Notes: generated by a model from the sequence alone, not told the origin. A stretch of DNA of 64,000 nucleotides from Clostridia bacterium (GCA_017626295.1 JAGAJB010000008.1:48565-112564); one strand, 5' to 3'. Positions 7,463 to 26,907 are shown, counted from the stretch's first letter. Numbers and translations are program-made.

Positions 7463-7491
7463 TTGATTTTAACACTTTTTGTTGCTATAAT
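7463..7491 (+). promoter_or_regulatory. sigma-A type promoter for the SH3b gene
   Basis: TTGATT (7463-7468), 17-nt spacer, TATAAT (7486-7491), about 35 nt upstream of the ATG at 7527. Confidence 0.55.
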
Positions 7492-7526
7492 TATTTCGGA
7501 TTATCTACCGAAAGGCAGGAAAAAAT

Positions 7527-8186: not shown

Positions 8187-8188
8187 AA

Positions 8189-9079: not shown

Positions 9080-9186
9080 AAAATAAAAAACACTGTAACC
9101 CTGTAAAACTTCCTTCATATTATGGTAATGAAGTTCAGGCAAAATGCATTTTGTACGCTTCAAAACTATAATTAGGAGGAAAAAAT

Positions 9187-10029: not shown

Positions 10030-10038
10030 TATTAAAAA

Positions 10039-10069
10039 TCGGAGTGGTTTTTCCACTCCGACTTTTTTT
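10039..10069. terminator. bidirectional rho-independent terminator
   Basis: TCGGAGTGG-TTTTT-CCACTCCGA followed by a T run on the plus strand and preceded by an A run. It sits between convergent genes. Confidence 0.75.
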
Positions 10070-11162: not shown

Positions 11163-11171
11163 TTTTTTGCC

Positions 11172-12170: not shown

Positions 12171-13678
12171 GCAATTCCCTCCTTGCTACGCATCATTGCG
12201 TACTTCATTATATTTTCCTGTGTGGCTTCTTCAATGGGAAGTTCGGCTGTTTTTCTGCCTTCACACATTACTATTACCCTGTCGGAACATCTTTGAATTT
12301 CCGCAAGTTCCGATGAAATCATAATTATCGACTTACCTTTTTTCACAAGTTCTTCCATCAGTTCATACATTTCACTTTTTGCACCGATGTCAATACCCCT
12401 TGTGGGCTCGTCAAATATGAAAATATCCGCATCTTTTATAAGCCACCTTGCAACTACCACCTTTTGCTGATTACCGCCCGAAAGGTTTCTTAAAATCTGC
12501 GACATTGATGAAGTTTTTGTACGAAGTTTTTTATTAACCTTTTCCGCTTCTTTTCTTGCGGAAATATCGTCAATAAAACCGAATTTTGTGAACTTCCCGA
12601 CACTTGCAAGTACAGAGTTTTCCGTTACGGATTTATCAAGTAACAAACCGAATCTTTTTCGGTCTTCGGATATATAGCAAATACCTTGGGAAACCGCTTG
12701 TTCGGGTGTTTCTATATTAACGAGTTTTCCGTTTATCTTTATTTCTCCGCTATCCTTTTTATCTGCACCGAAAAGCGCTCTGGCAACTTCCGTCCGCCCT
12801 GCGCCCATAAGACCCGAAAAGCCGAGAATTTCGCCTTTTTTCAGAGAAAAACTTACATTTTTAACTGTATTACCCACATTAAGATTTTTCACTTCCAACA
12901 CAGTAGGTGCGTCATCGGGACAGGCACTTTTTTCTTTAGTTTTACCTAAAATTACTCTGCCCACCATCATTTTAACTATTTCTTCGTTATCAGTTTCGTT
13001 TGTATTTACCGTACCGATATATTCACCGTCACGCATAACGGTTACGCGGTCGGAAATGCGTTTTATCTCGTCCATTCGGTGAGAAATGTAAATCATACCT
13101 ATACCTTTACTTTTCAGTTCTTTCATAATTCTGAAAAGATCGTCAACTTCAACTGACGTAAGGGCGGCGGTAGGCTCATCGAGAATCAATAATTTTGAAT
13201 TATGGGAAATGGCTTTTGCAATTTCAACCATTTGTTGTTTTCCCACAGTCAAATCCCCTAATCGCTTACGAGGAGAAATATTCACACCAACGTAATCCAG
13301 CAGTTTTTTTGCTTCTTTTTCCATTTTCCCGTCATCTATAAAAACACCGAATTTTATATACTCTCTGCCGATAAAAATGTTTTGAGCAACGGTTAAATCT
13401 TTCATCATATTAAGTTCCTGATGAATAATTGCTATGCCCTTTTCCTGAGATTCTTTTACATTTTGAAACTCAACTTTTTCACCGAAAACTTCAACCTCAC
13501 CGCTATCTCTTTCATAAATGCCCGTTAAAATTTTCATAAGAGTTGATTTACCCGCACCGTTTTCACCCATCAAGGCGTGTACCTCGCCTGCACGCAGTTC
13601 CAACGCAGCACCTTTCAAGGCTTTCACTCCCGAAAAACTTTTAGTTATATCAGTCATTTTGAGAATTACATTGTTCAT
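12167..13678 (-). CDS. sugar ABC transporter ATP-binding protein, duplicated ATPase (RbsA/MglA-like)
   Basis: Two ABC cassettes: Walker A GENGAGKST, LTVGKQQMVEIA, LILDEPTAAL, and a second LSGGNQQKV / FIFDEPTRGID. Confidence 0.85.
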   Translation of the reverse strand: MNNVILKMTDITKSFSGVKALKGAALELRAGEVHALMGENGAGKSTLMKILTGIYERDSGEVEVFGEKVEFQNVKESQEKGIAIIHQELNMMKDLTVAQNIFIGREYIKFGVFIDDGKMEKEAKKLLDYVGVNISPRKRLGDLTVGKQQMVEIAKAISHNSKLLILDEPTAALTSVEVDDLFRIMKELKSKGIGMIYISHRMDEIKRISDRVTVMRDGEYIGTVNTNETDNEEIVKMMVGRVILGKTKEKSACPDDAPTVLEVKNLNVGNTVKNVSFSLKKGEILGFSGLMGAGRTEVARALFGADKKDSGEIKINGKLVNIETPEQAVSQGICYISEDRKRFGLLLDKSVTENSVLASVGKFTKFGFIDDISARKEAEKVNKKLRTKTSSMSQILRNLSGGNQQKVVVARWLIKDADIFIFDEPTRGIDIGAKSEMYELMEELVKKGKSIIMISSELAEIQRCSDRVIVMCEGRKTAELPIEEATQENIMKYAMMRSKEGIA

Positions 13679-13749
13679 TTATTCACTTCCCTATCGTCTT
13701 GAAATATTATTATCATAAAATTGCCATTTAAACGAAGAAATAATATAAA

Positions 13750-13783
13750 ATAAAAAAAGAGAATCCGCGAAAGCGAATTCTCA
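13750..13783 (-). terminator. rho-independent terminator after the DUF4364 gene
   Basis: On the minus strand, GAGAATTCGC-TTTC-GCGGATTCTC is followed by a T run. Confidence 0.65.
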
Positions 13784-13797
13784 GAAAAATTTTATTC

Positions 13798-14367
13798 TTA
13801 TTTCTCACCGATAAGTCTGTCAATAATATCGGAATACAAAGCGCCCGGATCATCGAGGAAACCGTCTTTAAGTTGCTCAGCCTGTAAAACGTCGGCAACA
13901 TTAAGGGTCAGAGAAAGCATTGTTTCACCTAAACTCTGAATTTCAAAGGTTACGTTACAACCGTTTTCGAGTTTTTCGATTTTAACTTTATTTTCCCTCT
14001 CGGAACGAGCCCTTGAAACAATGTTAAGTGCCGCTTTAACCGCTTTATCACGCACACCGGGTAAAAGTGTATTTTCCAGGGCTAAGGCACTGTTTCCGCC
14101 TGTGGGTGAAACAACAAGATGGGGTTCACCTACATATTCCTGCTCACAAATAGTACCGTTTTCCAAAAGTTCATCAATAGCAGAGTTTGTATCAAAGAAA
14201 TTCACCAAACCTGTTTTTTGAAGTGAGTCGCAAATCTGATTACGCTTCATGGGGGTTTTGACGGATTTAAGAATATAACAAATAAGTATTTTTATTTCCA
14301 ACATATTACGCAGACCGCCTATTTCAATACCGCCTGCAAATGCATCGAATTTTACCAAGTTTGTCAC
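13798..14367 (-). CDS. DUF4364 family protein
   Basis: 189-aa ORF whose N-terminal region (LEIKILICYILKS...) resembles the DUF4364 proteins common in Clostridia. This is recognition only. Confidence 0.5.
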   Translation of the reverse strand: MTNLVKFDAFAGGIEIGGLRNMLEIKILICYILKSVKTPMKRNQICDSLQKTGLVNFFDTNSAIDELLENGTICEQEYVGEPHLVVSPTGGNSALALENTLLPGVRDKAVKAALNIVSRARSERENKVKIEKLENGCNVTFEIQSLGETMLSLTLNVADVLQAEQLKDGFLDDPGALYSDIIDRLIGEK

Positions 14368-14418
14368 CCTCTCAGAGTTAATCTGTTAGATATATTTTAA
14401 CATCTTTGAACATTTTAA

Positions 14419-15711
14419 TCAATGAAATTCACTTAATTTTTCAATTAAATGTTTTCGTATTTCCCCTGCAAGATACAATGACCCTACAGCACATAAAACA
14501 TCATCGGAAGTACTTCTTTCCAATACATAGTCAACAGCAGAAATCGGAGAATCGATTATAACAGTATCGTTGCAATATTTACTTGCTATACCCGAAAGTT
14601 CCGTGGCAGTCATAGCGCGAGGGTTATCGGGCGTTACGCACACAAAACAATCGGACTTTTTCATAAGCGCACTTAAAGAACTCTCAACGGCTTTATCTGC
14701 CATCATTCCTGCAACAACATAGATTTTCTCTTTGTTTTCCAAAACAGGTTTTACCGCTTCAAAAAATGCCTTTGCACCGTCTTCATTATGACCGCCGTCA
14801 AGAATTACAAGAGGATTTTTTGAAATCACCTCTACCCTTGCAGGTAATTTTGTTTTACTTATTCCCTCTTTTACATTTTCTATTTTTATATTAAACGCAT
14901 CTTTCAAGATTTCACAGGCTTCTATAACCGCGGTCATATTTTTAACCTGATGAATACCGGGTAATAATACATTATATTTTTCATTTTTATAAATAAACTC
15001 TGTACCGAAAATATCGGTTTTTAAAATTTCAACATCCTTTTCATTTGGTACTGTTAAGATGCAATTTTTGTTTTCACAAGTTTCCTTTATAACTTCAAGC
15101 GCCTTTTCGGGTTGACCGAAGGAACATATGACGTTACCCTTTTCTTTAATTGTACCGCATTTTTCAAAGGCAATTTCTTCAATAGTTTCACCTAGTATTG
15201 CGGTATGGTCAAGAGAAAGTGAAGTTATAACGTTAACAAGCGGTGTTTTTATAACGTTAGTAGCATCAAGTCTGCCGCCTAAACCGACTTCAAGAACAAC
15301 TACATCACAGGAAAGTGCCTTAAAACATAAAAAAGCCGCTGCAGTAAGCGCTTCAAACTCTGTAATAACCGTACCCTTTTCAGAAAGAAAACTGACGGCT
15401 GTTTTTACTTTTTCTACACTTTCTGCAAAGATATTTTTACTTACAGGCTCACCGCAAAACTGTACTCTTTCAAGAAATTCGCTGACATAAGGAGAAGTAT
15501 AAAGTCCTGTTTTGTAACCTGCGTCTGTAAGAACGTTGGAAATCGCAGTTGAAACAGAACCTTTACCGTTCGTACCTGCCACGTGAATAAATTTAAGGTC
15601 TTTTTCGGGGTTATCCAAAAAACGCAACAAGGCATCCATCCCGGAAAGACCGGGACGGATACCGAATTTTAATAATGAATGAATATATTCTACTGCTTCA
15701 GTATAAATCAT
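14419..15711 (-). CDS. folC: bifunctional folylpolyglutamate synthase / dihydrofolate synthase
   Basis: Mur-ligase P-loop HVAGTNGKGS. 430 aa. It overlaps the valS stop by 4 nt, matching the conserved valS-folC pair. Confidence 0.85.
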   Translation of the reverse strand: MIYTEAVEYIHSLLKFGIRPGLSGMDALLRFLDNPEKDLKFIHVAGTNGKGSVSTAISNVLTDAGYKTGLYTSPYVSEFLERVQFCGEPVSKNIFAESVEKVKTAVSFLSEKGTVITEFEALTAAAFLCFKALSCDVVVLEVGLGGRLDATNVIKTPLVNVITSLSLDHTAILGETIEEIAFEKCGTIKEKGNVICSFGQPEKALEVIKETCENKNCILTVPNEKDVEILKTDIFGTEFIYKNEKYNVLLPGIHQVKNMTAVIEACEILKDAFNIKIENVKEGISKTKLPARVEVISKNPLVILDGGHNEDGAKAFFEAVKPVLENKEKIYVVAGMMADKAVESSLSALMKKSDCFVCVTPDNPRAMTATELSGIASKYCNDTVIIDSPISAVDYVLERSTSDDVLCAVGSLYLAGEIRKHLIEKLSEFH

Positions 15712-18404
15712 TTGAGTTTTTCAAGACTTTCTTCGAGCATTGCAATTTTTGCCTGATGTTTTGCCTGTTTTTCGCGTTCCTGAGCAATAACTTTTTCGGG
15801 TGCTTTTGCGACGAAACCGGGGTTATTGAGTTTATTTTCTACAAACTGAAGGTCTTTTTTAGCCGCATCAAGTTCCTTCTGAAGTCTTGCGCGTTCTGCT
15901 TCAAAATCAACAAGTTCATTAAGAGGAATGAAAATCTTTGCTGATTCTGTGATTACACAAACACTACCTTCAATTTCAAAGGAATCACCGATTTCGATTT
16001 CAGAAGCATAAGCAAGTCTGTTCATAAACACACTGCCGTTTTTGAACTCGTCAACATATTTTGTTGCAATATAAAGTTTTGCTTTCTTTGAAGGCGGTAC
16101 GTTCATTTCGGCACGGCGGTTACGAACTGCCTTAATAGCAGCCATTACACGCTCCATAGCCTCTTCTTCCACAGGGAAATTAAGTGCCTCATCATACTTG
16201 CACCACTCGGAAATCATAATTGATTCGCCCTCGTGAGGAAGTGCGAGCCAGATTTCTTCGGTGATGAAAGGCATAAAGGGATGAAGAAGTTTAAGTGTAT
16301 TTGACATTACGTAAACAAGAACTGCTTTTGCGGTCTTTTTGCCTTCTTCATTATCGCCGTTAAGACGGATTTTTGCAATTTCGATATACCAATCGCAGAA
16401 CACGTCCCAGATGAAATCGTAAAGATTCTGAACGGCGATACCGAGTTCGTAGTTTTCAAGTGAATTCTGAACCGCTTTTACAAGGCTGTTGAAACGGCTG
16501 AGAATCCATTTATCCTCAGTAGCAAGGTTTTCGGGAATATGGGGTGCAGGCTCGTCATCATCGAGATTCATAAGGATGAAACGGTTTGCATTCCAGAGTT
16601 TATTGGCAAAGTTACGGCTTGCCTCAATCTTTTCGGGCATAAAACGCATATCGTTACCGGGGCTGTTACCGGTTGCAAGAGAGAATCTCAATGCATCTGC
16701 ACCGTACTGATCAACAATTTCAAGGGGATCAATACCGTTACCGAGGGATTTAGACATTTTTCTGCCCTGTGCATCACGTACAAGACCGTGAATAAGAACT
16801 GTATCAAAAGGAACTTTACCTGTGTATTCGAGGGCAGAGAAAATCATACGGGATACCCAGAAACCTATAATATCGTAACCTGTTACGAGGGTATTTGTGG
16901 GATAATAATGCTCTAAATCTTTTGTATTTTCGGGCCAACCGAGTGTTGAGAAGGGCCAGAGTGCTGAACTGAACCAAGTATCAAGAGTATCTTCATCCTG
17001 AGTAAGATTTACAGAACCGCACTTACTGCATTTTTCGGGAGCATCAATGCTGACAGTAATTCCGCCGCAATCAGCACAATACCACGCAGGGATTCTGTGA
17101 CCCCACCAAAGTTGACGGGAAACACACCAATCGCGTGTGTTATTCATCCAGTTAAGGTAGTTCTTTGTAAATCTTTCGGGTACGAACTTTGTTTCGCCCT
17201 TTTCAACCGCTTCAATAGCAGGTTTTGCAAGAGGAACCATACGAACGAACCACTGTTTTGAAACCATGGGCTCAATTGTACTGTGACAACGGTAGCATGT
17301 ACCGACTTCGTGCTTGAGAGGTTCGATTTCTTTAATATAACCGCCTGCTTCAAGGTCTGCGAGAATGGCTTTTCTTGCTTCCATGGTGGTCATTCCGGCA
17401 TATTTACCGCAATCAAGAACTTCAGGCTCATTTTCTGTTGCTCTGCCGCTTGCAATAAGTTCATCGGCAATTCTCTTATCCTCTGCGCCTGTAAGACGTC
17501 CGTCATAAGTAAATGTACGGACAATGGGAAGATTATTTCTCTGACCGACTTCAAAGTCGTTGGGGTCGTGAGCAGGTGTAATCTTAACAACACCTGTTCC
17601 CTTAGTCATATCAGCGTGTTCATCGCAAACGATGGGAATTTCTTTATTAAGAAGAGGTAAAATAACGTGACAACCGTGAAGATGTTTATAGCGTTCATCC
17701 TCTGCGTTAATAGCAACTGCAGTGTCACCGAGCATTGTTTCGGGACGGGTTGTAGCCAACTCAAGTTTCTCCCCTGTTTCCTTAACAGTATAGAGAAGAT
17801 GCCAGAAATTGCCGTCTTTTTCCTCGTACTCAACCTCTGCATCAGAAATAGATGTATTACAGCAAGGGCACCAGTTAACCATACGGTTGCCTCTGTAAAT
17901 CAAATCTTTATCGTAGAGTTTTTTGAATACTGTATTAACCGCTTTGTTACAGCCCTCGTCAAGTGTAAAACGCTCTCTGTCCCAGTCGCAGGAAGAACCG
18001 AGTTTTTTTAACTGTTCAACAATTCTGCCGCCGTATTTTGCTTTCCAGTCCCATGCTCTTTCAAGGAAACCGTCACGGCCGAGATCCTCTTTAGTAATGC
18101 CCTCTGCACGCATTGCCTCAACAATCTTTGCCTCAGTGGCAATAGATGCGTGGTCAGTACCGGGAAGCCAGAGTGTATCGTAACCCGACATTCGCTTCCA
18201 ACGGATAAGAATATCCTGTAAAGTGTTGTCAAGTGCGTGACCCATATGAAGTTGACCTGTAATGTTGGGTGGCGGAATAACAATAGTATAAGTAGGCTTG
18301 CCCTCTTCACACTTAGCGTGGAAGTATTTGCCGTCAAGCCAGGATTTATATATACGATCTTCTACATCTCTCGGATCGTACTGCTTTGCGAGCTCTTTCT
18401 TCAA
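15708..18404 (-). CDS. valS: valine--tRNA ligase
   Basis: 898 aa with HIGH-type motif PNITGQLHMGHA, KMSKS motif and a C-terminal coiled coil. Confidence 0.95.
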   Translation of the reverse strand: MKKELAKQYDPRDVEDRIYKSWLDGKYFHAKCEEGKPTYTIVIPPPNITGQLHMGHALDNTLQDILIRWKRMSGYDTLWLPGTDHASIATEAKIVEAMRAEGITKEDLGRDGFLERAWDWKAKYGGRIVEQLKKLGSSCDWDRERFTLDEGCNKAVNTVFKKLYDKDLIYRGNRMVNWCPCCNTSISDAEVEYEEKDGNFWHLLYTVKETGEKLELATTRPETMLGDTAVAINAEDERYKHLHGCHVILPLLNKEIPIVCDEHADMTKGTGVVKITPAHDPNDFEVGQRNNLPIVRTFTYDGRLTGAEDKRIADELIASGRATENEPEVLDCGKYAGMTTMEARKAILADLEAGGYIKEIEPLKHEVGTCYRCHSTIEPMVSKQWFVRMVPLAKPAIEAVEKGETKFVPERFTKNYLNWMNNTRDWCVSRQLWWGHRIPAWYCADCGGITVSIDAPEKCSKCGSVNLTQDEDTLDTWFSSALWPFSTLGWPENTKDLEHYYPTNTLVTGYDIIGFWVSRMIFSALEYTGKVPFDTVLIHGLVRDAQGRKMSKSLGNGIDPLEIVDQYGADALRFSLATGNSPGNDMRFMPEKIEASRNFANKLWNANRFILMNLDDDEPAPHIPENLATEDKWILSRFNSLVKAVQNSLENYELGIAVQNLYDFIWDVFCDWYIEIAKIRLNGDNEEGKKTAKAVLVYVMSNTLKLLHPFMPFITEEIWLALPHEGESIMISEWCKYDEALNFPVEEEAMERVMAAIKAVRNRRAEMNVPPSKKAKLYIATKYVDEFKNGSVFMNRLAYASEIEIGDSFEIEGSVCVITESAKIFIPLNELVDFEAERARLQKELDAAKKDLQFVENKLNNPGFVAKAPEKVIAQEREKQAKHQAKIAMLEESLEKLK

Positions 18405-18587
18405 AAGAAGTCCCCCTTAAAAATGATGATTAGTTACCGCAAAACGCAGAAACTCAATTTACACAACATTATCCCACATATTCATCGGAATGTCAATGAT
18501 ACATTTTACTATATAATGGAAAAGAAATAAAATTTTTAACACTATTTTACACAACAAACGCAAAAAAACCTTATATTGCGAAAATAC

Positions 18588-18616
18588 TTGATTTTTACCA
18601 AAAAATATAATATACT
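18588..18616 (+). promoter_or_regulatory. sigma-A type promoter for the DUF4234-like gene
   Basis: TTGATT, 17-nt spacer, TATACT, about 35 nt upstream of the RBS AAAGGAG and the ATG at 18652. Confidence 0.45.
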
Positions 18617-18651
18617 GTTATAGTAAATAACTGCTAAAAGGAGTTTTTGAA

Positions 18652-19095
18652 ATGTCATCTTGCATCAAACAAAGAAGTTTTATTACTTTATTTATTCTCG
18701 GTATCCTTACACTCGGTATTTATCCCATCGTTTTCTGGCACAAACTTTCTAAGGAAGTTAACGTTCTTTGCGAAGGCGACGGAAAGAAAACTATGAAGTA
18801 TGTTTTCGTATGGCTTCTCAACATTGTTACATTAGGTATTTTCGGTCTTGTTTGGAAATGCAAACTTACCAACAGACTCAAAGAAAACGCTTCCCGTTAC
18901 GGTCTTAAATTCAGTGAAAGCGGTGCGCTTGTTGTAGTATTATGCACAGTATTCTTCCCCATCGGAGGTCTTTTCATTGCTCACTGCATTATGATAAAGA
19001 ACTTTAACGCTATGGGCGCTGCATTCAACGAATACAACGGTCTTATTGATGAAAAAGCAAAAAACAGCGTTTTTGCAGATGTTGATGAAGACTAA
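18652..19095 (+). CDS. small membrane protein, DUF4234-like
   Basis: 147 aa with repeated helix motifs (LTLGIYPIVFWHKL, VTLGIFGLVWKCKL) typical of DUF4234. Confidence 0.5.
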   Translation: MSSCIKQRSFITLFILGILTLGIYPIVFWHKLSKEVNVLCEGDGKKTMKYVFVWLLNIVTLGIFGLVWKCKLTNRLKENASRYGLKFSESGALVVVLCTVFFPIGGLFIAHCIMIKNFNAMGAAFNEYNGLIDEKAKNSVFADVDED

Positions 19096-19119
19096 TTTTA
19101 ACTGAATTACATATTATTA

Positions 19120-19165: not shown

Positions 19166-19204
19166 GACAAAAAGAAAACTCCCTGCCAAAAAGCAAGGAG
19201 TTTT
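19166..19204 (-). terminator. orphaned rho-independent terminator (probable original rpsI terminator, now separated from rpsI by the island)
   Basis: On the minus strand, AAAACTCCTTGC-TTTTTG-GCAGGGAGTTTT is followed by CTTTTT. It lies 13 nt beyond the attL copy of the rpsI 3-prime end. Confidence 0.6.
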
Positions 19205-19216: not shown

Positions 19217-19232
19217 CAATTATCTCTTTGAG
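19217..19232. repeat. attL core (CAATTATCTCTTTGAG)
   Basis: Identical 16-mer at 26506-26521. This copy is a duplicated rpsI 3-prime end without the rest of the gene. Confidence 0.8.
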
Positions 19233-19242
19233 TTATAAGAAC

Positions 19243-19271
19243 GGTGTTTTGTACCGTTTTGAACTGTTTTG
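19243..19271 (+). repeat. three 10-bp-phased (T/C)GTTTTG repeats next to attL
   Basis: GGTGTTTTG / ACCGTTTTG / ACTGTTTTG start exactly 10 bp apart. They are candidate recombination-directionality or bending-protein sites. Confidence 0.35.
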
Positions 19272-19350
19272 AAAAGTCCTTTATTATAGCGGTTTGCTTG
19301 CTTTATTGTATCATATCGTTTTGTAAATTTCAAGACCGTTTTATATTTTG

Positions 19351-19382
19351 GGACATCAAACAGACATCAGCGGACATCAAAA
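19351..19382 (+). repeat. three direct (G/A)GACATCA repeats (candidate integrase arm-type sites, int-proximal arm)
   Basis: GGACATCAAA-CAGACATCAG-CGGACATCAAAA, immediately after the int stop codon. The same octamer occurs twice at the other island end. Confidence 0.5.
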
Positions 19383-19384
19383 CA

Positions 19385-20518
19385 CTATTGCAATTTTAAG
19401 GAAATCAAGTCTGCAACTTTTGCCTTTGCACTGTCAAGAACATCAGCATACACATTCGCAGTTGTTGATACATCAGAATGACCGAGCAATTCAGAAACTA
19501 TTTTCAAATCAATACCGCTATTTATTAAAAGTGTGGCGTTGCAGTGCCTTAAACTATGCAATGTAATGAAGTCAAAGTCTGTACCTTTGACAAAACGCCT
19601 GAATTGTGTGTTGAGTCCTGACCTATCAACATAATTGCCGCTATCGGTTGTAAATACCATTTCAGGAAATTTATAATCTTTTCCGAGTTTTGCTATCTTT
19701 TCATCATTGTATTGTTTCTGCTCTAAAAAGATTTTTGCCAAAATATCCGATAATGCAATATACCTATTACTTGTTTTAGTTTTCGGCGGTTGTAACCAAT
19801 GCTTACCGCCTACATCTGTTAGTGTGTTTTCAATGTGAATAGTTTTGTTTTCAAAGTCTATATCTTGCCAACGCAGAGCTAAACATTCACCCGAACGCAT
19901 ACCTGTATATAATAAAACTTTAATAATGCGGTTGAACTGTGTGCTATCTTCAACCATTTTCAATAAGTCTTTCGCTTGATGTTCATTAAGGAAAGGCTTT
20001 TTTTCTTTTGGTTGCTTTGCTTTTGGTAATATAACCGCTTTTGTGCAGGGTGTTTCTTTTATAAAACCCTGTTCAACGGCACGAGCGAAAATGCTTTGAA
20101 GTATAACATATACTTTTCTGCAAGTCGCAGGGGCATATTTGCGAGTCTTGAAAAAGGCAGTTATCTTTGCAGGGGTAAAGTCTTTGAGTTTGATGTTTCC
20201 AAGTTCAGGCAAAAGGTGATTTTTTATCTGACTTTCATAGTTATATGCTGTAATCTCTTTTAGTTCATTCTTTGCATAGTTATCAATAAACCATTCAGCC
20301 ATATCACAGAAACGCATATTTTCATTTAATGAAGTCATACCCTTGCATTTTCTTTCAAACTCAATAGCGAATTCGTGAGCAAGTTTTTCAGCCTTTTTCG
20401 GTGTGGTATTTTCAGGCGGTTTATATGTAGTTGTTTTTCGTATCTTCTTACCGTTCACATCAAGACCGAGAGAAACGACAATCTGAAAAGTGTTTCCACG
20501 CTTATTTACTGTTGCCAT
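19385..20518 (-). CDS. int: tyrosine site-specific integrase
   Basis: 377 aa. The N-terminal arm-binding-type domain (MATVNKRGNTFQIVVSLG) is followed by a catalytic domain with R (LYTGMRSGE), HSLRHCNAT and LGHSDVSTTANVYADV (catalytic Tyr). Confidence 0.9.
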   Translation of the reverse strand: MATVNKRGNTFQIVVSLGLDVNGKKIRKTTTYKPPENTTPKKAEKLAHEFAIEFERKCKGMTSLNENMRFCDMAEWFIDNYAKNELKEITAYNYESQIKNHLLPELGNIKLKDFTPAKITAFFKTRKYAPATCRKVYVILQSIFARAVEQGFIKETPCTKAVILPKAKQPKEKKPFLNEHQAKDLLKMVEDSTQFNRIIKVLLYTGMRSGECLALRWQDIDFENKTIHIENTLTDVGGKHWLQPPKTKTSNRYIALSDILAKIFLEQKQYNDEKIAKLGKDYKFPEMVFTTDSGNYVDRSGLNTQFRRFVKGTDFDFITLHSLRHCNATLLINSGIDLKIVSELLGHSDVSTTANVYADVLDSAKAKVADLISLKLQ

Positions 20519-20527
20519 AATTAAAAC

Positions 20528-21091
20528 CTACCTCATATTTACAGGGGGATTAGCAGTGTTAGCACCTTTAGTTATAACTTTAATATCAGAAAATTCCGTT
20601 AAGCGATAATCTATTTTATCACCTTGCACCCCTGCTTTTATTTTTTCATTATAACGAGCCTTAATATCATTGAGCCACGCTTCACGCCCTGCTTCAGGTA
20701 TTCCCTTTTCTTTTACAAAATGTTCAGCGTTATCATACTCAAGAAGAAAATCACGCAAATTTTCTTCAATAGTTACGGTAAAGAAACTATCGCCACATTC
20801 GTGTTTTTTTGTACATATATTAAAATATTTCCTTAATGCTAAAAGAGTTGTACTTGCTTCATCGTTCATATCATCTGCTACACCGTATAACCAATCAAGA
20901 GAAACTCCAAAAGCATTTTTTATGCTTATTGCATTATCAAGTGTTAACTTCACTTTTCCTTGCTCTATTTTTCTTATTGTATCAGGTGAAACACCGATTT
21001 TTTCCGCAAACTCTTCTTGAGTTATATTTCCATTCTTTTCTCTTAACTCTTTTAAGCGTTGTATTGACTTCTTTTTAGTTTCTTCAGTCAT
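20528..21091 (-). CDS. XRE/cI-family HTH repressor with a non-peptidase C-terminal domain (Stl-like master repressor candidate)
   Basis: The N-terminal HTH_XRE is LKELREKNGNITQEEFAEKIGVSPDTIRKIEQGK. The C-terminal domain of about 110 aa lacks S24/LexA Ser-Lys motifs. The gene is divergent from the cro/xis/primase operon. Confidence 0.75.
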   Translation of the reverse strand: MTEETKKKSIQRLKELREKNGNITQEEFAEKIGVSPDTIRKIEQGKVKLTLDNAISIKNAFGVSLDWLYGVADDMNDEASTTLLALRKYFNICTKKHECGDSFFTVTIEENLRDFLLEYDNAEHFVKEKGIPEAGREAWLNDIKARYNEKIKAGVQGDKIDYRLTEFSDIKVITKGANTANPPVNMR

Positions 21092-21106
21092 AAAATTACC
21101 ACCTTT

Positions 21107-21164
21107 ATATTGTTGTTATTATCATTATACACCATAAATTACTAATTGTCAACAACAACATACC
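21107..21164 (-). promoter_or_regulatory. consensus promoter of the repressor gene bracketed by inverted repeats (candidate operators)
   Basis: On the minus strand, TTGACA (21147-21152), 17-nt spacer and TG-extended TATAAT (21124-21129). TTGTTGTT (21110-21117) and AACAACAA (21151-21158) form an inverted pair, the latter overlapping the -35. Confidence 0.6.
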
Positions 21165-21297
21165 AAAAGCAGTAATATTTGGTCTTGAAATTTATTTTTT
21201 ACTATCATTGGTATTCACTGTAAAATAATTCTTAAAACAAGTATAATAAACACAGTGAAGTTGCAACGCCACTAATTTCTATGAAAGGAAAACTCAA

Positions 21298-21480
21298 ATG
21301 ACAAATATTGAAATAAGACAGGCAATTAAAAATGCAAAGATTAAATATTGGCAAGTAGCTGAAAAAATGGGTATCAATGACGGTAATTTCAGCCGAAAGT
21401 TAAGAAAAGAACTACCCGAAAGCGAAAAAACAAAAATCCTTGAAATTATAGAAAATATCAAGGTAACAAATGCAATATAG
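21298..21480 (+). CDS. small Cro/Str-like regulator
   Basis: 60-aa ORF, the first gene divergent from the repressor. It has an RBS (AAAGGAAAACTCAAATG) and an HTH-like segment YWQVAEKMGINDGNFSRKL. Confidence 0.5.
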   Translation: MTNIEIRQAIKNAKIKYWQVAEKMGINDGNFSRKLRKELPESEKTKILEIIENIKVTNAI

Positions 21481-21490
21481 GCGGTGATAA

Positions 21491-21679
21491 ATGATGAAAA
21501 CATTTTATACCGTACGAGAAGTTGCACACACAGGCATACTTTCTGAATATGCTTTGCGTTTAATGCTGAAATCGGACAACCCACCCCCACACATTACAAT
21601 CAATAAAAAAGTAATGATAAACTATCCCCTTTTTATTGAATGGCTTAATAACGAAAGTAAAAAGGCGGTGAGTAGTTGA
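21491..21679 (+). CDS. xis: excisionase-family / HTH_17-like DNA-binding protein
   Basis: 62 aa. YTVREVAHTGILSEYALRLMLKS...PHITINKKVMINYPLFIEWL resembles excisionase/AlpA-type winged HTH. Its stop overlaps the primase start by 4 nt. Confidence 0.5.
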   Translation: MMKTFYTVREVAHTGILSEYALRLMLKSDNPPPHITINKKVMINYPLFIEWLNNESKKAVSS

Positions 21680-23736
21680 ACCACCTGAAGCAAAAATCTG
21701 TGTGGATAAATTGGCGTTTTGAAAAGGACAGAAACGGCAGACCGACAAAAGTACCTAAAAACTCCCGAACAGGTGGAAACGCACAATCGGACAATCCACA
21801 AACTTGGAGCAGTTTTTCAAAGGCTGAAGCCGAAAAGCAAAAATATAGTGGTATTGGCTTTATGTTTGCGAATGGCATTTGCGGTGTTGATATTGACGGT
21901 TCAGACGGACATACAAAAGAAAACCCCTTGACCGCTGAACTGCTTGAACTTTTCAAAGGTACATATATCGAAAAGAGTCCGAGCGGAAGCGGTTATCACA
22001 TCATTTTTCAGTGTGATATAAGCCAAATTCCCACAGAAACAGACAAAGACGGAAAAACAAAGTTAAACCCTGCCTATTATCAGAAAAACCCTAAAAACAA
22101 TATAGAGTGCTATATTTCAGGCATTACAAATCGTTTCTTTACCTACACAGGTAATCAAGTATCAGAGCATAGCGAAATTACAGACCAAACAGAACAGGTT
22201 TTATATCTGTTAAACAAGTTTATGTATAGAGGTGATGAGCGTATAAGTACATCAATTCTTGAAAGAGCAAGGAACGCAAAAAACGGTAATAAGTTTATCG
22301 CTTTATATGACAATGGGGATATTTCCGCATACAACAATGATGAAAGCAGTGCTGATATTGCTTTATGTAACATTCTTGCTTTTTATTTACAGGGTGATAC
22401 CGCCGCTATTGATACGGCTTTTCGTGAAAGTGCTTTATACCGTCCAAAATGGGAGCGGACAGACTACCGAGAAAACACTATATCAAAGGCTGTTGCTTTG
22501 TGTGGCGGTGAGTATTACAAAGGCAGAGGCAGACCACGCACACGCACGCAGAACGAGTCTATAACCGAAGATTTTACCCCTGATGTGTTAAGTGCTTACC
22601 TTGAAGAAAACGGCATTACAGTTCGTTTTAACGATATTACAAAAGCCGTTGATATTGAGGGTATGGAAAACGAAAGTGCAGAGCATATACAGGCTAATAT
22701 ATCGGCTATTCTTTACAGTGAATTGCAGAGTCAATACAAGCGGTGCAATATGCAGATAATTTCTTCTTACCTTGATATTATTGCAAGTCGAAACAGATAC
22801 AACCCTGTACTTGATTTTCTTGACAGTGTGGAATATGACGGTAACGATTATTTGACAGAATTATACGAAATTCTCAATATTTCCGCTGATGATACATTAA
22901 GTCGTACACTTATAAAAAAATGGCTGTGGCAGTGTATTTCAATGCTACACAATAACCCTGTTGAGCCGTTCGGTGCTGACGGTGTTCTTGTTATCACAGG
23001 TAAACAAGGTATCGGTAAAACAAGCCTATTCCGTAAACTTGCACTGAAACCGCAGTTTTTTAAAGAAGGTATCGCTTTAGACTTCAGGGATAAAGACTCA
23101 TACATTCGAGCGTTGTCCTGTTGGATAGGTGAACTCGGAGAGATTGAAACAACTTTCAAATCTGATGTTGAACGCCTAAAGGCATTTATAACACAAAATG
23201 TTGATGAATACCGAAAGGCTTACGGCAGGGGCGATATTCGGGCAGTACGCCGCACTTCTTTGTGTGGCACTTGTAACAGTGAAGAATTCCTGATTGATTG
23301 CACAGGAAATCGGCGATTTTTTAGTGTGGCGGTTGATGAAATCGACCTTGACAGACTTTCAACTTTCAATGCGGTTCAGTTATGGAAACAGATACAGGCT
23401 TTATCAAGTGGTAATTTGCAGGGCTTTAGGCTTACAAAGGAAGAACAAAAAGAACTTGCAAAGCGTAACGCAGTACACGAAAAGAAACTCAAAGGCGAAA
23501 ACGAAATTGAGGATATTCTTAATGCTGTTGATAATGCAAAGTATAAGATAAGTAACGAGTTGATGACGGTAACTGACTTCAAGCAGTTATATAGCGACGA
23601 ACTCCGAGCCTATTCCGTTGCACAAATCGGCAAAGTGCTTGATAAGTTGGGTTATTCAGCAGAGGTTAGGAAAATCAACGGACGAACGCAAAGATTAAGA
23701 GTACTACCGAGAAGAATATACAACAATTATTATTAA
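21676..23736 (+). CDS. fused AEP primase-polymerase / VirE-type P-loop ATPase (satellite pri-rep equivalent)
   Basis: The N-terminus has AEP motifs CGVDIDG (DxD) and SPSGSGYHIIF (sGxGxH). The C-terminal half has Walker A GKQGIGKTS and Walker B-like WIGELGE, as in virulence-associated protein E / D5-type replicative NTPases. Confidence 0.8.
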   Translation: MNHLKQKSVWINWRFEKDRNGRPTKVPKNSRTGGNAQSDNPQTWSSFSKAEAEKQKYSGIGFMFANGICGVDIDGSDGHTKENPLTAELLELFKGTYIEKSPSGSGYHIIFQCDISQIPTETDKDGKTKLNPAYYQKNPKNNIECYISGITNRFFTYTGNQVSEHSEITDQTEQVLYLLNKFMYRGDERISTSILERARNAKNGNKFIALYDNGDISAYNNDESSADIALCNILAFYLQGDTAAIDTAFRESALYRPKWERTDYRENTISKAVALCGGEYYKGRGRPRTRTQNESITEDFTPDVLSAYLEENGITVRFNDITKAVDIEGMENESAEHIQANISAILYSELQSQYKRCNMQIISSYLDIIASRNRYNPVLDFLDSVEYDGNDYLTELYEILNISADDTLSRTLIKKWLWQCISMLHNNPVEPFGADGVLVITGKQGIGKTSLFRKLALKPQFFKEGIALDFRDKDSYIRALSCWIGELGEIETTFKSDVERLKAFITQNVDEYRKAYGRGDIRAVRRTSLCGTCNSEEFLIDCTGNRRFFSVAVDEIDLDRLSTFNAVQLWKQIQALSSGNLQGFRLTKEEQKELAKRNAVHEKKLKGENEIEDILNAVDNAKYKISNELMTVTDFKQLYSDELRAYSVAQIGKVLDKLGYSAEVRKINGRTQRLRVLPRRIYNNYY

Positions 23737-23740
23737 ATAG

Positions 23741-23857
23741 GTTACGGTTTACAGCGGTTACAGGTAACTCTATGGGACAATAAAAAAATAAAAAAATAAT
23801 TTATTAAATTATTATGTTACAAAGAAATTTACCGTAACTCCTGTAAATTGCCGTAAC
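23741..23857. promoter_or_regulatory. candidate replication origin: imperfect inverted iteron arms flanking an AT-rich core
   Basis: The left arm is GTTACGGTTTACAGCGGTTACAGGTAAC (23741-23768). The right arm is TTACCGTAACTCCTGTAAATTGCCGTAAC (23829-23857), whose reverse complement is GTTACGGCAATTTACAGGAGTTACGGTAA. The spacer at 23779-23820 is about 90 percent A/T. The region lies directly downstream of the primase/ATPase gene. Confidence 0.5.
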
Positions 23858-23874
23858 TTTTAGAGGTGAAGCGT

Positions 23875-24087
23875 ATGAAAATACTGTTTCAAACGAAAAT
23901 CGGCACTTTCAGAGGTTGTCCGTGTGTGTTACAAAGAATAGATGATACGCCGATAAACTATGCTGAATGGTGCGTACAGTTTGCAGGTAACGGACATTAT
24001 TTTTCTAAATATGATGAAGCCGTTGCATATATCCGAAAAAGAAAATTTTTAAGCAACAAACAAATTGAATTGATAGCGAGGTGTTAA
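23875..24087 (+). CDS. hypothetical protein (island operon gene 1)
   Basis: 70-aa ORF from the ATG preceded by AGAGGTGA. The ORF track uses an upstream GTG at 23866. Confidence 0.45.
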   Translation: MKILFQTKIGTFRGCPCVLQRIDDTPINYAEWCVQFAGNGHYFSKYDEAVAYIRKRKFLSNKQIELIARC

Positions 24088-24089
24088 AG

Positions 24090-24257
24090 ATGACCGATTA
24101 TAACAAAATGCTTATTGACTTGTTAAATGAAAAAATTGATTTATTAAAAGAAAAAATAGTGCATTTAAATATTGAAAACGACTCTAAACGAAAGGAAATA
24201 AACCGCCTTAAAAGGCGTATTAAGGAAATGGAAAAACAGAATGATAATATTTCTTAA
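24090..24257 (+). CDS. small coiled-coil protein (island operon gene 2; below ORF-track cutoff)
   Basis: Manual translation gives MTDYNKMLIDLLNEKIDLLKEKIVHLNIENDSKRKEINRLKRRIKEMEKQNDNIS (55 aa). It starts 2 nt after the previous stop. Confidence 0.4.
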   Translation: MTDYNKMLIDLLNEKIDLLKEKIVHLNIENDSKRKEINRLKRRIKEMEKQNDNIS

Positions 24258-24313
24258 AAGATGTATTCAACGATTATTTGTGAAATCTGCTACAAAGAAA
24301 GAGGGTGTAAAGT

Positions 24314-24682
24314 GTGCAGAGGAAGAACGACGAGATTTTACTATCTGCTCTAATTGCGTGCGGCAGTATTCGAGCCGCTGCGAAAATTGCCGAATGTTCA
24401 GAAACGACAATCAGAACAAGGCTGAATGATGATGATTTTCGGCAAAGGTACGAACAAGCAAAAGGGGCGATTTTAACTGAAGCCTGCGACGCTATTTCTG
24501 CACGCTTAACCCGTGCTATCGATACTTTGTGTGAGGTGTTGGAAGATACCGAAAACGCCGCTACAGTTAGAGTATCAGCGGCAGACTCCCTGCTCCGTCA
24601 CGGTTTACGCTATGTTGAGGTAGCAAATATTCTTGCAAGATTAGAAGCCATAGAAAAGGCACAAAAAGATAACAATTATTGA
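24314..24682 (+). CDS. HTH protein, possibly small-terminase-like / packaging-redirecting
   Basis: GTG start preceded by GAGGGTG. The N-terminal HTH is LLSALIACGSIRAAAKIAECSETTIRTRLNDDDFRQRYEQAK, followed by a helical oligomerisation-like tail. This pattern is seen in phage proteins at the head of packaging modules. This is recognition only. Confidence 0.45.
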   Translation: MQRKNDEILLSALIACGSIRAAAKIAECSETTIRTRLNDDDFRQRYEQAKGAILTEACDAISARLTRAIDTLCEVLEDTENAATVRVSAADSLLRHGLRYVEVANILARLEAIEKAQKDNNY

Positions 24683-24683
24683 T

Positions 24684-25283
24684 TTGAAAGGAATTGATTA
24701 TATTATGACTACAAAAAGAGAGTTTTATTGGGACATCAGATGTATAGCAAATTCAACTATTGAGGATATGAACGAATTAGAAAAACAGTCAAAAGCCATT
24801 GAAAACAAGATTAAAAGCAAACGTTATACCCCTGATATTATTTCAAAAGAACTTATGCCTGAACTTCAAAATATCAAGCGTGAGATTAACAAGCGTAAAG
24901 ATGAAGGCTGTAAAGAAATTCGTACTCGTTCTGATGAATATATTGCAGAATTACGAAAGGCAGATGAACTCAACCCCGATAATTTAACTGATGATATTAA
25001 ACTGTTACAATCAGGAGTTGCTCTTTCAGCTGATGACTTGACAATGCTTTTTGACCGTAATACAGGCAATAGCACAATGCAAAAGTTAATTACCGATTAT
25101 GCAAAACAGCACAATAGAGATATTCAGCGTTTTTACAGACCGACTCACGCCGATTTGATTATAAGTGTCAATACAGTCCCTGAAGCATTGCAAACCGTTT
25201 TGAATTGGTACAATAAGCCGAGTGTTTACGAAAAACTAATCGGTGAGGGTTCACAGTTTGACCAATATTTTTGCAATGAATAA
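24684..25283 (+). CDS. hypothetical protein (island operon gene 4)
   Basis: 199-aa ORF from TTG. The likelier start is the ATG at 24705 (MTTKREFYWD). It is helical and charged, with no recognisable motif. Confidence 0.5.
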   Translation: MKGIDYIMTTKREFYWDIRCIANSTIEDMNELEKQSKAIENKIKSKRYTPDIISKELMPELQNIKREINKRKDEGCKEIRTRSDEYIAELRKADELNPDNLTDDIKLLQSGVALSADDLTMLFDRNTGNSTMQKLITDYAKQHNRDIQRFYRPTHADLIISVNTVPEALQTVLNWYNKPSVYEKLIGEGSQFDQYFCNE

Positions 25284-25566
25284 TAACATTAAGACAACGC
25301 AACGCCGTTTGCAAGACATTGAAAAGCAATTAAAAATAGAACCTATACCGAGTTTTCAAGAATTCAAAAGTGAGTGGGAAAGAATGGACTCTCTTTCCTG
25401 TTCCGTTCTTGCGGCAGAGGCAGAAAGCGGAGATTTTGAAAGTATGAGCCGAACAAGACAAAAATATATGCTTGCGGTTAAAACCTATTTACTTGAAATG
25501 GGTGTTATAAATGGCAATGAAAAAACTCTCCGAGAAATTGCAACGGAAATGGAGAATACAAATTGA
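25276..25566 (+). CDS. hypothetical protein (island operon gene 5)
   Basis: The ATG at 25276 overlaps the previous stop (ATGAATAA). 96 aa, helical. Confidence 0.45.
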   Translation: MNNNIKTTQRRLQDIEKQLKIEPIPSFQEFKSEWERMDSLSCSVLAAEAESGDFESMSRTRQKYMLAVKTYLLEMGVINGNEKTLREIATEMENTN

Positions 25567-25787
25567 AAGATATATTTTCACGCTTAAAAGAAATAGAACG
25601 CACGCAACTGTCAAGAGTCGCTGTGTTCTATCCTGACGGAAAAAGAGTTGAAGTCAATGCCTTAAAAGCCTTTAATATGGCTGTTAATTCTCCCGAAAAT
25701 ATCTCTTTTCAAGCAATAGATAACAAGGCTATGACTTCATTATTAAATGCCGTTAGGGAGTCCACATCAAAGGCGGTGGACGAATGA
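25563..25787 (+). CDS. hypothetical protein (island operon gene 6)
   Basis: 74-aa ORF. Its TTG start overlaps the preceding TGA, and its own stop overlaps the next ATG. Confidence 0.4.
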   Translation: MKDIFSRLKEIERTQLSRVAVFYPDGKRVEVNALKAFNMAVNSPENISFQAIDNKAMTSLLNAVRESTSKAVDE

Positions 25788-26011
25788 CCGATAAGGAAAA
25801 AGCCGCTATCTGTTTAATGTGTGATAAGCCTGAATGTACAGGTGAGGCAAAATGCTTTGCGGAAAGGAAAAAAGAGTATCTAAAGAAATATAATGAAGAA
25901 CGCCGAAAAGGTGAGCAAGCACTCAATTATGTTTGTAATGTGGAATACTCAAAAGCCAAAAGAAAAGCAAGAATAACGGCTATAAACAAACGTAGAAAGG
26001 ATAATGCTTAA
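25784..26011 (+). CDS. small Cys4 (CxxC-x4-C-x5-C) protein with a highly basic tail
   Basis: 75 aa: ICLMCDKPECTGEAKC followed by a K/R-rich C-terminus (KAKRKARITAINKRRKDNA). ATGA overlap with the upstream gene. Confidence 0.45.
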   Translation: MTDKEKAAICLMCDKPECTGEAKCFAERKKEYLKKYNEERRKGEQALNYVCNVEYSKAKRKARITAINKRRKDNA

Positions 26012-26293
26012 ATGAAAATAGCAAAACGTCTTGATAATATCGAGGCACATATTGAAATGCTGACAAAATATGCTCCAATTATTTTGGCTATTGATAAACA
26101 TATTCATTATGATGAACTGCCAACTGACGAATACAAAAGCCTTTATTGTGAGTATATCGGCATAGACCGAGAAACCTTTGAAAATGTGGCTGTTATGGTT
26201 TTAGGTGATTTACATATCATTTTGCGAAAAATCGAACCGCCTACAGATAAAGAACTTCAGGCAATTATTGCAGAGGTTGAAGAAAAGGTTTGA
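26012..26293 (+). CDS. hypothetical protein (island operon gene 8, last gene)
   Basis: 93-aa ORF starting immediately after the preceding TAA (TAAATG). It is followed by two hairpin/T-run terminator-like structures at about 26338-26372 and 26381-26417. Confidence 0.45.
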   Translation: MKIAKRLDNIEAHIEMLTKYAPIILAIDKHIHYDELPTDEYKSLYCEYIGIDRETFENVAVMVLGDLHIILRKIEPPTDKELQAIIAEVEEKV

Positions 26294-26430
26294 ATTAAAT
26301 TTGATTATTCCTTTATAGAGTCTCCTTTCTAAAAGAGAACCGTTCGGCATATTGTCGGGCGGTTTTCTGCTACAAATAAAAAGGCGGCTGACCGTAAAAT
26401 CAACCGCTTTTTTGCTATTTTTCTATCATT

Positions 26431-26455
26431 CGGACATCAAACGGACATCAAAAAA
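26431..26455 (+). repeat. two direct GGACATCA repeats (candidate integrase arm-type sites, int-distal arm)
   Basis: CGGACATCAAACGGACATCAAAAAA has the same octamer and orientation as the three copies at 19351-19382. Confidence 0.5.
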
Positions 26456-26490
26456 GGCTTGTAACAAGGCATAAACCCTGTAAACAAGCC
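26449..26490 (-). terminator. island-borne terminator now serving rpsI
   Basis: On the minus strand, 18 nt after the rpsI stop, an interrupted stem GGCTTGT..ACAGGG / CCTTGT..ACAAGCC is followed by TTTTTT. Confidence 0.5.
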
Positions 26491-26505
26491 ATTTTCTTGA
26501 TGAAA

Positions 26506-26521
26506 CAATTATCTCTTTGAG
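26506..26521. repeat. attR core (CAATTATCTCTTTGAG) overlapping the rpsI stop codon
   Basis: Identical to 19217-19232. It contains the last four codons (S-K-R-stop) of rpsI. Confidence 0.8.
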
Positions 26522-26907
26522 AACTGGGGTGCACGACGAGCGCCTTTGAGACCGTATTTCTTTCTTTCTTTCATTCTGGGGTCTCTTGTAAGAAGGCCGG
26601 CTTTTTTGAGGATGGGACGAACATCGTCTTCAGACTGAAGAAGTGCTCTTGCAATACCGTGACGGATTGCACCTGCCTGACCTGTAACGCCACCGCCGTT
26701 TACACGGCAAACAACATCGTACTTTTCAACACTCTCTGTAAGAGCAAGAGGCTGACGAACGATAAGTTTGAGTGTTTCAAGACCGAAATAATCGTCGATA
26801 TCTCTGTCATTGATTGTAACCTTGCCTGTGCCGGGATATACACGAACACGAGCAACTGATTTTTTTCTTCTACCTGTGCCGTAGAAATATGCTTTGCTTT
26901 CGTACAT
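26509..26907 (-). CDS. rpsI: 30S ribosomal protein S9
   Basis: 132 aa: [14 protein letters not shown] ... [19 protein letters not shown] ... [17 protein letters not shown]. Confidence 0.95.

Follow-up and report, generated by a model that had tools for sequence, protein, structure and literature searches.

Phage-inducible chromosomal islands (PICIs) of Gram-positive bacteria, such as the Staphylococcus aureus pathogenicity islands (SaPIs, e.g., SaPIbov1) and their enterococcal, lactococcal and streptococcal counterparts, encode an integrase, a divergent repressor/cro switch, an excisionase (xis), a primase-replicase with an origin of replication downstream of it and an operon containing terS, the gene of the small terminase subunit (TerS). 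They are inserted site-specifically at an attachment (att) site with a short direct repeat, have diverse Stl-like repressors and do not contain virion or lysis genes. Here we analyze an island that shares this layout and is found at positions 19,217 to 26,521 of a 64,000-nucleotide stretch of DNA from a Clostridia bacterium (GCA_017626295.1 JAGAJB010000008.1:48565-112564; the whole stretch is termed the window). The anaerobic Clostridia that dominate in the gut, most of them uncultured, have to our knowledge yielded no characterized phage satellite so far.

Satellites of about 6 kb are known from Vibrionaceae, where PICMIs (phage-inducible chromosomal minimalist islands; e.g., PICMI115, 6.1 kb) can be packaged as concatemers (PMC10803314). 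Their core consists of int, alpA and prim, with AlpA as the key regulator and with neither terS nor a repressor/cro switch; they are integrated beside fis in Gram-negative marine vibrios and depend on virulent helpers (PMC10803314). The island studied here resembles PICMIs in its minimal size and gene content (integrase, small helix-turn-helix (HTH) excision regulator and primase), in its position at the end of a housekeeping gene and in its lack of capsid-remodeling genes, which leads us to predict that it would also be packaged as a concatemer. There is no sequence relationship between the two, however, and because PICMIs differ in packaging gene, switch, site and host, an island at rpsI in Clostridia that carries TerS and an XRE repressor is not a PICMI.

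We consider it nearly certain that the segment is a site-specific, self-replicating mobile island, and likely that it is a PICI-type satellite which depends on a helper and uses its own TerS. When the criteria for PICIs are applied (Fillol-Salom 2018; de Sousa et al. 2023, PMC10085698), four of the five core components are present (integrase, regulator, primase-replicase and small terminase) and none of the forbidden ones. Integration is represented by a tyrosine integrase with 16-bp repeats, an exact empty site and relatives in at least 13 species; regulation by an XRE repressor divergent from a cro-like gene, a consensus promoter and an HTH_17-like xis; replication by a primase-polymerase/VapE protein with an iteron/AT-rich origin directly downstream; and packaging by TerS, with moderate support. 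Tail, holin, portal and other virion genes are absent. The fifth component, capsid morphogenesis or interference, is often missing in Gram-positive PICIs, which are then termed ‘Type B’ (PMC10085698), and judged by its gene content the island would correspond to this type. None of the features of capsid-forming PICIs (own capsid, portal, protease, head-tail connectors and large terminase subunit, TerL) was detected.

In comparison with SaPIs, the island is about half the size (7.3 kb against ~15 kb). The original prediction for this locus, made by a model from the sequence alone, had stressed that it is much smaller than classical SaPIs, which holds; such a size nevertheless has a precedent in the 6.1-kb PICMI115. 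The island has no homologues of cpmA/B, ptiA/ppi or ccm and fuses primase and replicase into one NrS-1-type primase-polymerase/VapE protein, while its late module consists of unannotated families; its hosts are uncultured gut Oscillospirales. The VapE-like helicase is shared with SaPIs, and the best match among PDB sequences is a chain named ‘Similar to D. nodosus vapE’. All computational tests that could be run agree with the predicted PICI-like satellite, which is supported by the empty attB site, the family at rpsI, the conserved origin, TerS, the lack of homology between the small ORFs and phage structural genes and the lack of a relaxase. The analysis also confirmed every item of the predicted gene list, namely the integrase, the repressor, the cro-like and xis-like genes, the primase/VirE-type ATPase, the AT-rich repeat region and the terminator.

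The island is located at the 3′ end of rpsI, the gene of ribosomal protein S9, between two perfect copies of the 16-bp sequence CAATTATCTCTTTGAG, both of which had been proposed as its borders and are found as described (Table 1). The repeat was read directly in the window and matched by regular expression in an identical copy of the locus (L001) that comes from SRR12529197; judging from base composition, we estimate that chance alone would give ~0.03 exact 16-mers per 9 kb. The right copy overlaps the final 13 nt of rpsI, including the stop codon, and rpsI therefore remains intact after integration. The empty attB that such borders imply for related genomes exists in exact form in two contigs of the same species, retrieved from public assemblies by their identical RpsI protein (L025 and L026), in which the rpsI stop is followed by one repeat copy, the terminator of 19175-19204 and a DUF4234 gene, with no insert. 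The junction in L026 equals the two flanks in the window base for base; the insert is therefore sized at 7,289 bp plus one duplicated 16-bp core.

Because contigs of the same species hold differing inserts at this point, the rpsI 3′ end is an integration hot spot with accretion in the window's species. Five contigs with the identical RpsI protein (L021, L023, L024, L028 and L029, ~10400-19100) contain an unrelated ~8.7-kb island at the same site, which encodes a 412-aa integrase, an HTH_17 protein, McrBC, DUF6809, a nitroreductase and an AAA_14/DUF4143 ATPase. In L022 this island stands in tandem with another one that has a 380-aa integrase, and L020 and L027 (10400-11500) have short two-open reading frame (ORF) inserts. 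In L004, a close relative of the island studied here, a third att copy is found at 827-1000, ~155 bp outside attL (TAATTATCTCTTTGAGAACTG..., then TAATTATCTCTTTGAGTTATAAG), and resembles a scar left behind by an element that was there earlier or in tandem. No tRNA gene is present in the window. The remainder of the window, in which ORFs of at least 150 aa were listed by position and length only and most were not scanned for domains, gave no sign of a phage or gene transfer agent (GTA) cluster, and those ORFs with Pfam-annotated counterparts in contigs of the same species are housekeeping genes.

The rpsI 3′ end is also a documented target of the tyrosine integrases of streptococcal integrative mobilizable elements (IMEs) and integrative and conjugative elements (IMESag-rpsI and others), which accumulate there in tandem (PMC5357655). 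One may therefore ask whether the island is an IME, an element that excises and replicates alone and moves via the mating pore that a conjugative element supplies. It shares with the IMESag-rpsI type the target gene end, the tyrosine integrase and tandem accretion (here in L022 and L004); unrelated islands and tandems occupy the site in strains of the same species, and a small size with an int-xis-rep layout is typical of IMEs too. Yet elements of the IMESag-rpsI type carry relaxases or mobilization modules and no terminase, whereas in the island a terminase is present and a relaxase absent. Domains of a relaxase, a coupling protein or another mobilization function were found in none of its ORFs, the original prediction having named a relaxase as the sign of an IME, although an oriT without a relaxase is not excludable by sequence. 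The unknown ORFs are all 55-192 aa long and the largest, o192, is all-helical. TerS is a phage packaging function without a role in conjugation, the replicase is of phage type and matches 853 phage records, and a DNA search with the whole island gave no match in plasmid records, nor in GenBank phages. We thus regard conjugative mobilization as quite improbable.

Relatives of the island were collected with one genome per species, which yielded 14 close loci. A search for the island in other genomes had been suggested, and relatives do occupy this position at rpsI in 13 or more further species of Oscillospirales; the carriers are Acutalibacteraceae, Oscillospiraceae, Ruminococcus and unclassified Clostridia metagenome-assembled genomes from human, deer, goat and rabbit guts. 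Islands with both ends present are 6.7-8.0 kb in size (6.0-8.0 kb for the family overall), and repeats of 13-21 bp mark their borders at the rpsI 3′ end. The order of the backbone is int, regulator, cro, xis, primase, ori, o70, o55, Cys-rich protein, TerS, o192-type gene and variable small ORFs. The integrase is 86-99% identical in rpsI islands of other species. When the window is compared with the loci L003, L004 and L005, identity reaches 92-96% in the island DNA but no more than ~76% in the neighboring rpsI-rplM genes; the island has therefore crossed between species recently.

Within this family the repressor, replicase and integrase modules are swapped between relatives. The late module o55-TerS-o192-o102-o75-o93 recurs with AAA_25 replicases where the window has the primase-polymerase (the island is only 5,971 bp long in one such case) and, on other contigs, with a VapE-only replicase or without any large replicase; it is also linked to a tRNA-targeting tyrosine integrase in L038 and to large serine recombinases in L010 and L049-L051. 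The constant element among these swapped modules is TerS with its downstream partner, and such exchange is typical satellite modularity. The compact 6-8 kb architecture recurs in many species and in hundreds of assemblies. The L049-L051 island (~4100-10300) is itself very common in the gut: it is ~6.2 kb long and has a glycoside hydrolase gene on one side and an ECF transporter gene on the other. Its recombinase is of the large serine type, its regulator a DUF6076 protein and its replicase an AAA_25 protein; its TerS shares 59% identity with that of the window and appears in 153 blocks of the public assembly collection, and two small ORFs complete the gene set.

The constancy of the late module bears on the question of whether helper particles are needed at all. 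Satellites of Streptococcus thermophilus can move by competence after induced excision (PMC13376191), and with this precedent the island could be a self-replicating integrative element that spreads by natural transformation, or mainly an island that stays resident for phage defense or regulation, with a TerS that does no more than sabotage phage packaging. Searches of viral collections gave no close family member and no attP junction, as detailed below, and its late genes of unassigned role could be interference genes, both of which would agree with such a life. On the other hand, recombinase and replicase are swapped around a late module that stays strictly conserved about TerS, which suggests that packaging is selected, and near-identical islands in species with ~24% divergence in ribosomal genes call for an efficient vehicle. 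PADLOC detected no defense system in the island, its sole real matches being generic HTH matches of the repressor. We hold helper-independent spread to be unlikely and a helper-dependent satellite to be the likely explanation.

The late operon consists of eight packed ORFs on the plus strand (23875-26293) and ends at a hairpin. The prediction of eight tightly packed small ORFs was right as to the packing but missed that one of them encodes TerS. This ORF (24314-24682) matches three PHROG small-terminase families with E-values of 1e-4 to 5e-3, and the small-terminase PHROGs are matched by 33 of the 35 family members tested, the best at 5e-8. Homologues in public data form more than 160 clusters at 90% identity, all of them unnamed. 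The genomic context agrees with the assignment: in MT836267 (L033), a circular contig of 11.5 kb, the gene of a Terminase_3 large terminase begins within that of a homologue, another lies just before TerL across the contig junction of a circular IMG/VR contig (L042), and a third is found two genes upstream of the annotated large terminase in the complete 30.7-kb phage PQ006093. An AlphaFold model of the protein (predicted local distance difference test score, pLDDT, 87) displays a three-helix HTH followed by a long helical hairpin. An HTH DNA-binding part joined to a helical oligomerization part is the usual layout of small terminases. We consider the assignment well supported but not proven. 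A 62-aa Cys-rich ORF that overlaps the start of terS in another frame (24241-24429, plus strand) was rejected as a gene; it is less conserved than terS, is not called in public assemblies and is probably non-coding.

The gene downstream of terS, o192, is its near-constant partner and is absent from L005, the one island here in which TerS was not detectable either. The o192 model (pLDDT 91.6) is all-helical, with a long helical hairpin and a small helical domain. Foldseek found nothing significant for it in the PDB and one marginal match in BFVD, an uncharacterized protein of a gut ‘Siphoviridae sp.’ (E 3e-3), and a PHROGs search with 54 diverse members gave no consistent family. In a profile search the family comprised 547 representative clusters at 50% identity. 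Homologues are located downstream of TerS or TerL in L031, L032, L033 and L042, and o192 can be put forward as a candidate packaging or helper-interference factor. L031 (MT837364), a 7,033-bp virome scaffold, encodes a DnaB-like helicase, TerS, an o192-like protein of 277 aa and a protein that clusters with the sigma-70-like protein of L032; a tape-measure-like protein of 717 aa follows the o192-like gene directly, with no TerL, portal or capsid gene between them, which is an unusual order.

As for the other late genes, o75 is located between o55 and TerS in more distant islands, and the island proteins appear in public records (MBO5462256-63; locus tags J6A49_02985-03020) as ‘hypothetical protein [Clostridia bacterium]’. 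The hairpin that closes the operon (26384-26407) stands in for the rpsI terminator displaced by the insertion. Rfam gave nothing on the island other than a sub-threshold match to the isrI small RNA in the o74 coding region (25589-25684, plus strand; 33 bits against a gathering score of 45, E 0.002), which is probably a chance match. The minus-strand ‘c7’ ORFs of related islands look like low-complexity artefacts and were discarded.

The original prediction reported no capsid, portal, tail, lysis, large terminase, relaxase or transposase genes, and Pfam and PHROGs searches among the island ORFs bear this out. A decayed prophage that kept its lysogeny and replication modules would nonetheless be expected to look phage-like in just those genes that are of phage type here, the integrase, the repressor/cro switch, the primase and the small terminase. 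What argues against decay is that both att copies are perfect and the ORFs intact and tightly packed, that the same compact 6-8 kb architecture is found across many species in hundreds of assemblies, and that the island has recently crossed between species. No fragment recognizable as a structural or lysis gene is present, and no full-length prophage was found in which this late module is followed by TerL, portal and capsid. The possibility that the small ORFs are degraded structural genes, raised originally as a way in which the satellite reading could fail, finds no backing, since no structural homology was detected in Pfam, PHROGs or GenBank phages; o102 and o93 have no homologue in GenBank phages, which rules this scenario out. 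We give almost no credence to a prophage remnant.

The replication initiator combines three parts, as Table 1 details. Its Pfam matches are NrS1 HBD (2e-18) and VapE (3e-47); the N-terminal half matches the NrS-1 primase-polymerase in the PDB (6a9w and others, ~4e-13) and the C-terminal half VapE-type helicases (7pds, a VapE-like hexamer, 2e-25). The 129-bp candidate origin follows directly, and its layout is present in all 15 islands that have this primase, usually with three repeats per side. Conserved symmetric repeats of this kind are the pattern expected of a protein-bound iteron origin, which makes the region a candidate for one. The SaPI origin has the same layout. In L004 (5608-5746) the iterons are changed to ATTACA/TGTAA symmetrically on both sides, which suggests a switch in iteron specificity; the L004 primase is ~97% identical to that of the window despite the altered iterons. 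The adjoining ORF o70 travels with this module: it is found in 13 of the 14 islands with a primase-polymerase and is absent where the replicase is AAA_25.

In the regulatory region, a perfect TTGACA-17-TATAAT promoter on the minus strand (21124-21152) reads into the repressor gene, and a 14-nt direct repeat occurs at 21113 and 21196. The XRE repressor has no S24 peptidase domain, and no S24 or other peptidase domain was found in any regulator scanned across the family. The xis-like protein aligns at 24% identity (E 1e-6) with an HTH_17 protein that adjoins the integrase of another island, and the position of its gene is kept across the family. The repressor cassette is the sole stretch that does not align between the window island and the otherwise 92-96% identical islands, in which unrelated regulators take its place, namely a DUF6076-like protein, an XRE+BetR protein or another XRE protein. 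The Stl repressors of SaPIs are diverse and sense different helper proteins. By analogy, the variety found here may mirror Stl diversity, and the swapped repressors are candidate sensors of specific helper phages.

Inside the att repeats, three direct GGACATCA repeats are located ~135-160 nt inside attL and two ~75-95 nt inside attR. Their number, position and orientation are constant in all nine islands with this integrase, and they are good candidates for arm-type integrase sites. A search with the arm-site pattern gave seven matches in metagenomes and none in viral contig collections; six of the seven are integrated attR junctions beside rpsI and one adjoins tRNA-like sequence. The attP junction of a circular form, in which the right end, core and left end would be joined, was predicted as ...CTTGATGAAA-CAATTATCTCTTTGAG-TTATAAGAACGG....

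Several observations weigh against a helper-dependent satellite. The attP junction had no match in the metagenome and viral contig collections, and every arm-site match beside rpsI is an integrated attR junction, the tRNA-like one being the single exception. Copies in virus-like particles had been anticipated, but the viral contig collections contain no close copy: IMG/VR held no close relative by primase, TerS protein or TerS alignment (its single primase match is one contig of 45% identity, L030), and there are no close family members in GenBank phage records. No helper phage was identified, and no homologues of the capsid-morphogenesis or interference genes cpm, ccm, ppi and rpp were found. 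The TerS call is based on synteny and on profile matches with E-values between 1e-4 and 5e-8; a profile search against PDB sequences gave no match, and the top Foldseek matches, 2ao9 (a nine-chain Bacillus cereus prophage protein, which is regarded as a small terminase) and 7joq (the NV1 small terminase), are non-significant (E 0.35). No function can be assigned to five of the eight late proteins, or to seven when o70 and o55 are included. That the island excises, replicates upon helper induction and is packaged is thus inferred from its anatomy and its recent horizontal transfer. Circular permutation was also sought in the island-sized Logan contigs L034, L036, L038, L043 and L044; their ends are host flanks or att repeats, and they were rejected as circular forms.

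Table 1. Features of the island and of its target gene, in positions of the window.
Feature	Position	Strand	Description
attL core	19217-19232		Left copy of the perfect 16-bp direct repeat CAATTATCTCTTTGAG; the one copy that empty sites have (L025, L026)
Candidate arm-type integrase sites, P arm	19351-19379		Three direct GGACATCA repeats
Tyrosine integrase	19385-20518	minus	377 aa; Phage_integrase 3e-30, SAM-like N domain, phrog_1 5e-77
XRE repressor	20528-21091	minus	Master repressor candidate; HTH_3 6e-17; C-terminal domain unassigned
Divergent control region	21092-21297		Between repressor and cro-like gene
cro-like small regulator	21298-21480	plus	60 aa; phrog_17740 5e-13; weak HTH_26 match
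Excisionase/AlpA-like HTH protein	21491-21679	plus	62 aa
Replication initiator	21676-23736	plus	686 aa; archaeo-eukaryotic primase (AEP)-type primase-polymerase (NrS-1 type), helix-bundle domain and VapE/superfamily 3 helicase
Candidate origin of replication	23737-23865		129 bp; GTTAC(A/G)G iterons, ~45-nt AT-rich core, inverted GTAAC iterons
o70	23875-24087	plus	Travels with the primase-polymerase/ori module
o55	24090-24257	plus	Coiled-coil protein; first gene of the conserved late module
Small terminase subunit (TerS)	24314-24682	plus	122 aa; assigned by PHROGs, synteny and predicted fold
o192	24705-25283	plus	Helical-hairpin protein; near-constant TerS partner
o102	25258-25566	plus	Late module
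o74	25563-25787	plus	Late operon
o75	25784-26011	plus	Cys-rich basic small protein
o93	26012-26293	plus	Final gene of the operon
Bidirectional terminator hairpin	26384-26407		T-runs on both sides; closes the island operon
Candidate arm-type integrase sites, P′ arm	26432-26450		Two direct GGACATCA repeats
attR core	26506-26521		Right copy of CAATTATCTCTTTGAG; provides the final codons and stop codon of rpsI
rpsI (ribosomal protein S9)	26509-26907	minus	Target gene

A life cycle that fits this anatomy can be proposed. The tyrosine integrase would recombine the 16-bp core shared with the rpsI 3′ end, assisted by the three and two GGACATCA arm sites, and integration would rebuild the rpsI stop and supply a new terminator. 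In the integrated state the XRE repressor, expressed from its consensus promoter, would silence the rightward operon. As it has no self-cleaving peptidase domain, its release is presumed to occur through binding of a helper-phage protein, as with the Stl of SaPIs. After derepression the excisionase-like protein and the integrase would excise the island, and the primase-polymerase/VapE protein would fire the iteron origin directly downstream of its own gene. TerS would then bind island DNA and recruit the TerL of the helper, leading to packaging in helper-made particles, while o192 and the four other small late proteins would, as we speculate, probably serve in helper interference or in remodeling of packaging. 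Such particles could carry the island to other Oscillospirales, where near-identical islands are found, for insertion at rpsI.

Related elements in viral collections are circular contigs of ~11 kb. MT836267 (L033) and IMGVR_UViG_3300011005_000642 (L042) have homologues of TerS (30-39% identity) and o192 (32-36%) and encode an integrase and a primase/helicase like the island, but they are larger, distantly related and carry TerL. L033 (11,458 bp, with a 124-bp terminal repeat) comes from human feces and is named ‘Bacteriophage sp.’ in GenBank; L042 (11,159 bp, with a 99-bp terminal repeat) also encodes ParA and a possible head-closure protein. Together with L041, another circular IMG/VR contig of this size and gene set (integrase, primase/helicase, TerS, TerL and o192-like protein), they have no capsid or portal gene among the ORFs scanned and may represent a separate class of terminase-carrying satellites or a phage-plasmid-like element.

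Another question that is raised by the narrow size range is which kind of particle such an island would use. In Ruminococcaceae/Oscillospiraceae (Faecalibacterium, Gemmiger and Ruminococcus), GTA-like particles were described that package 4.6-8.9 kb and whose candidate TerS has no evident DNA-binding domain (PMC12946183, 2026). One island copy per GTA-like head would fit the size of 6.0-8.0 kb, and the TerS of the island carries an HTH. The size range could thus be tuned to very small heads instead of to concatemers packaged in phage heads of normal size, with the island either parasitizing GTA-like particles or forcing T=3-sized helper heads via o192, an idea that we regard as very doubtful. 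If the GTA reading were true, the HTH-bearing TerS would make a random packaging machine selective for the island, and the host of this satellite would then be a domesticated virus, a kind of association that has yet to be described.

The architecture itself is ordinary for a satellite, and we place the island among the PICIs as a new subfamily, from a host clade in which satellites have yet to be characterized. Its value lies in its abundance and host range and in the unannotated family of TerS partners: the family is common in gut Clostridia, where its proteins are annotated as hypothetical, and a new mechanism of packaging or interference may be represented by o192. If these islands are active satellites, they would provide a compact 6-8 kb chassis (integrase, switch, replicase with ori, and TerS) for the delivery of DNA into commensals that are hard to transform, and they would add to the gut a layer of gene transfer and of parasitism on phages that has been hidden.

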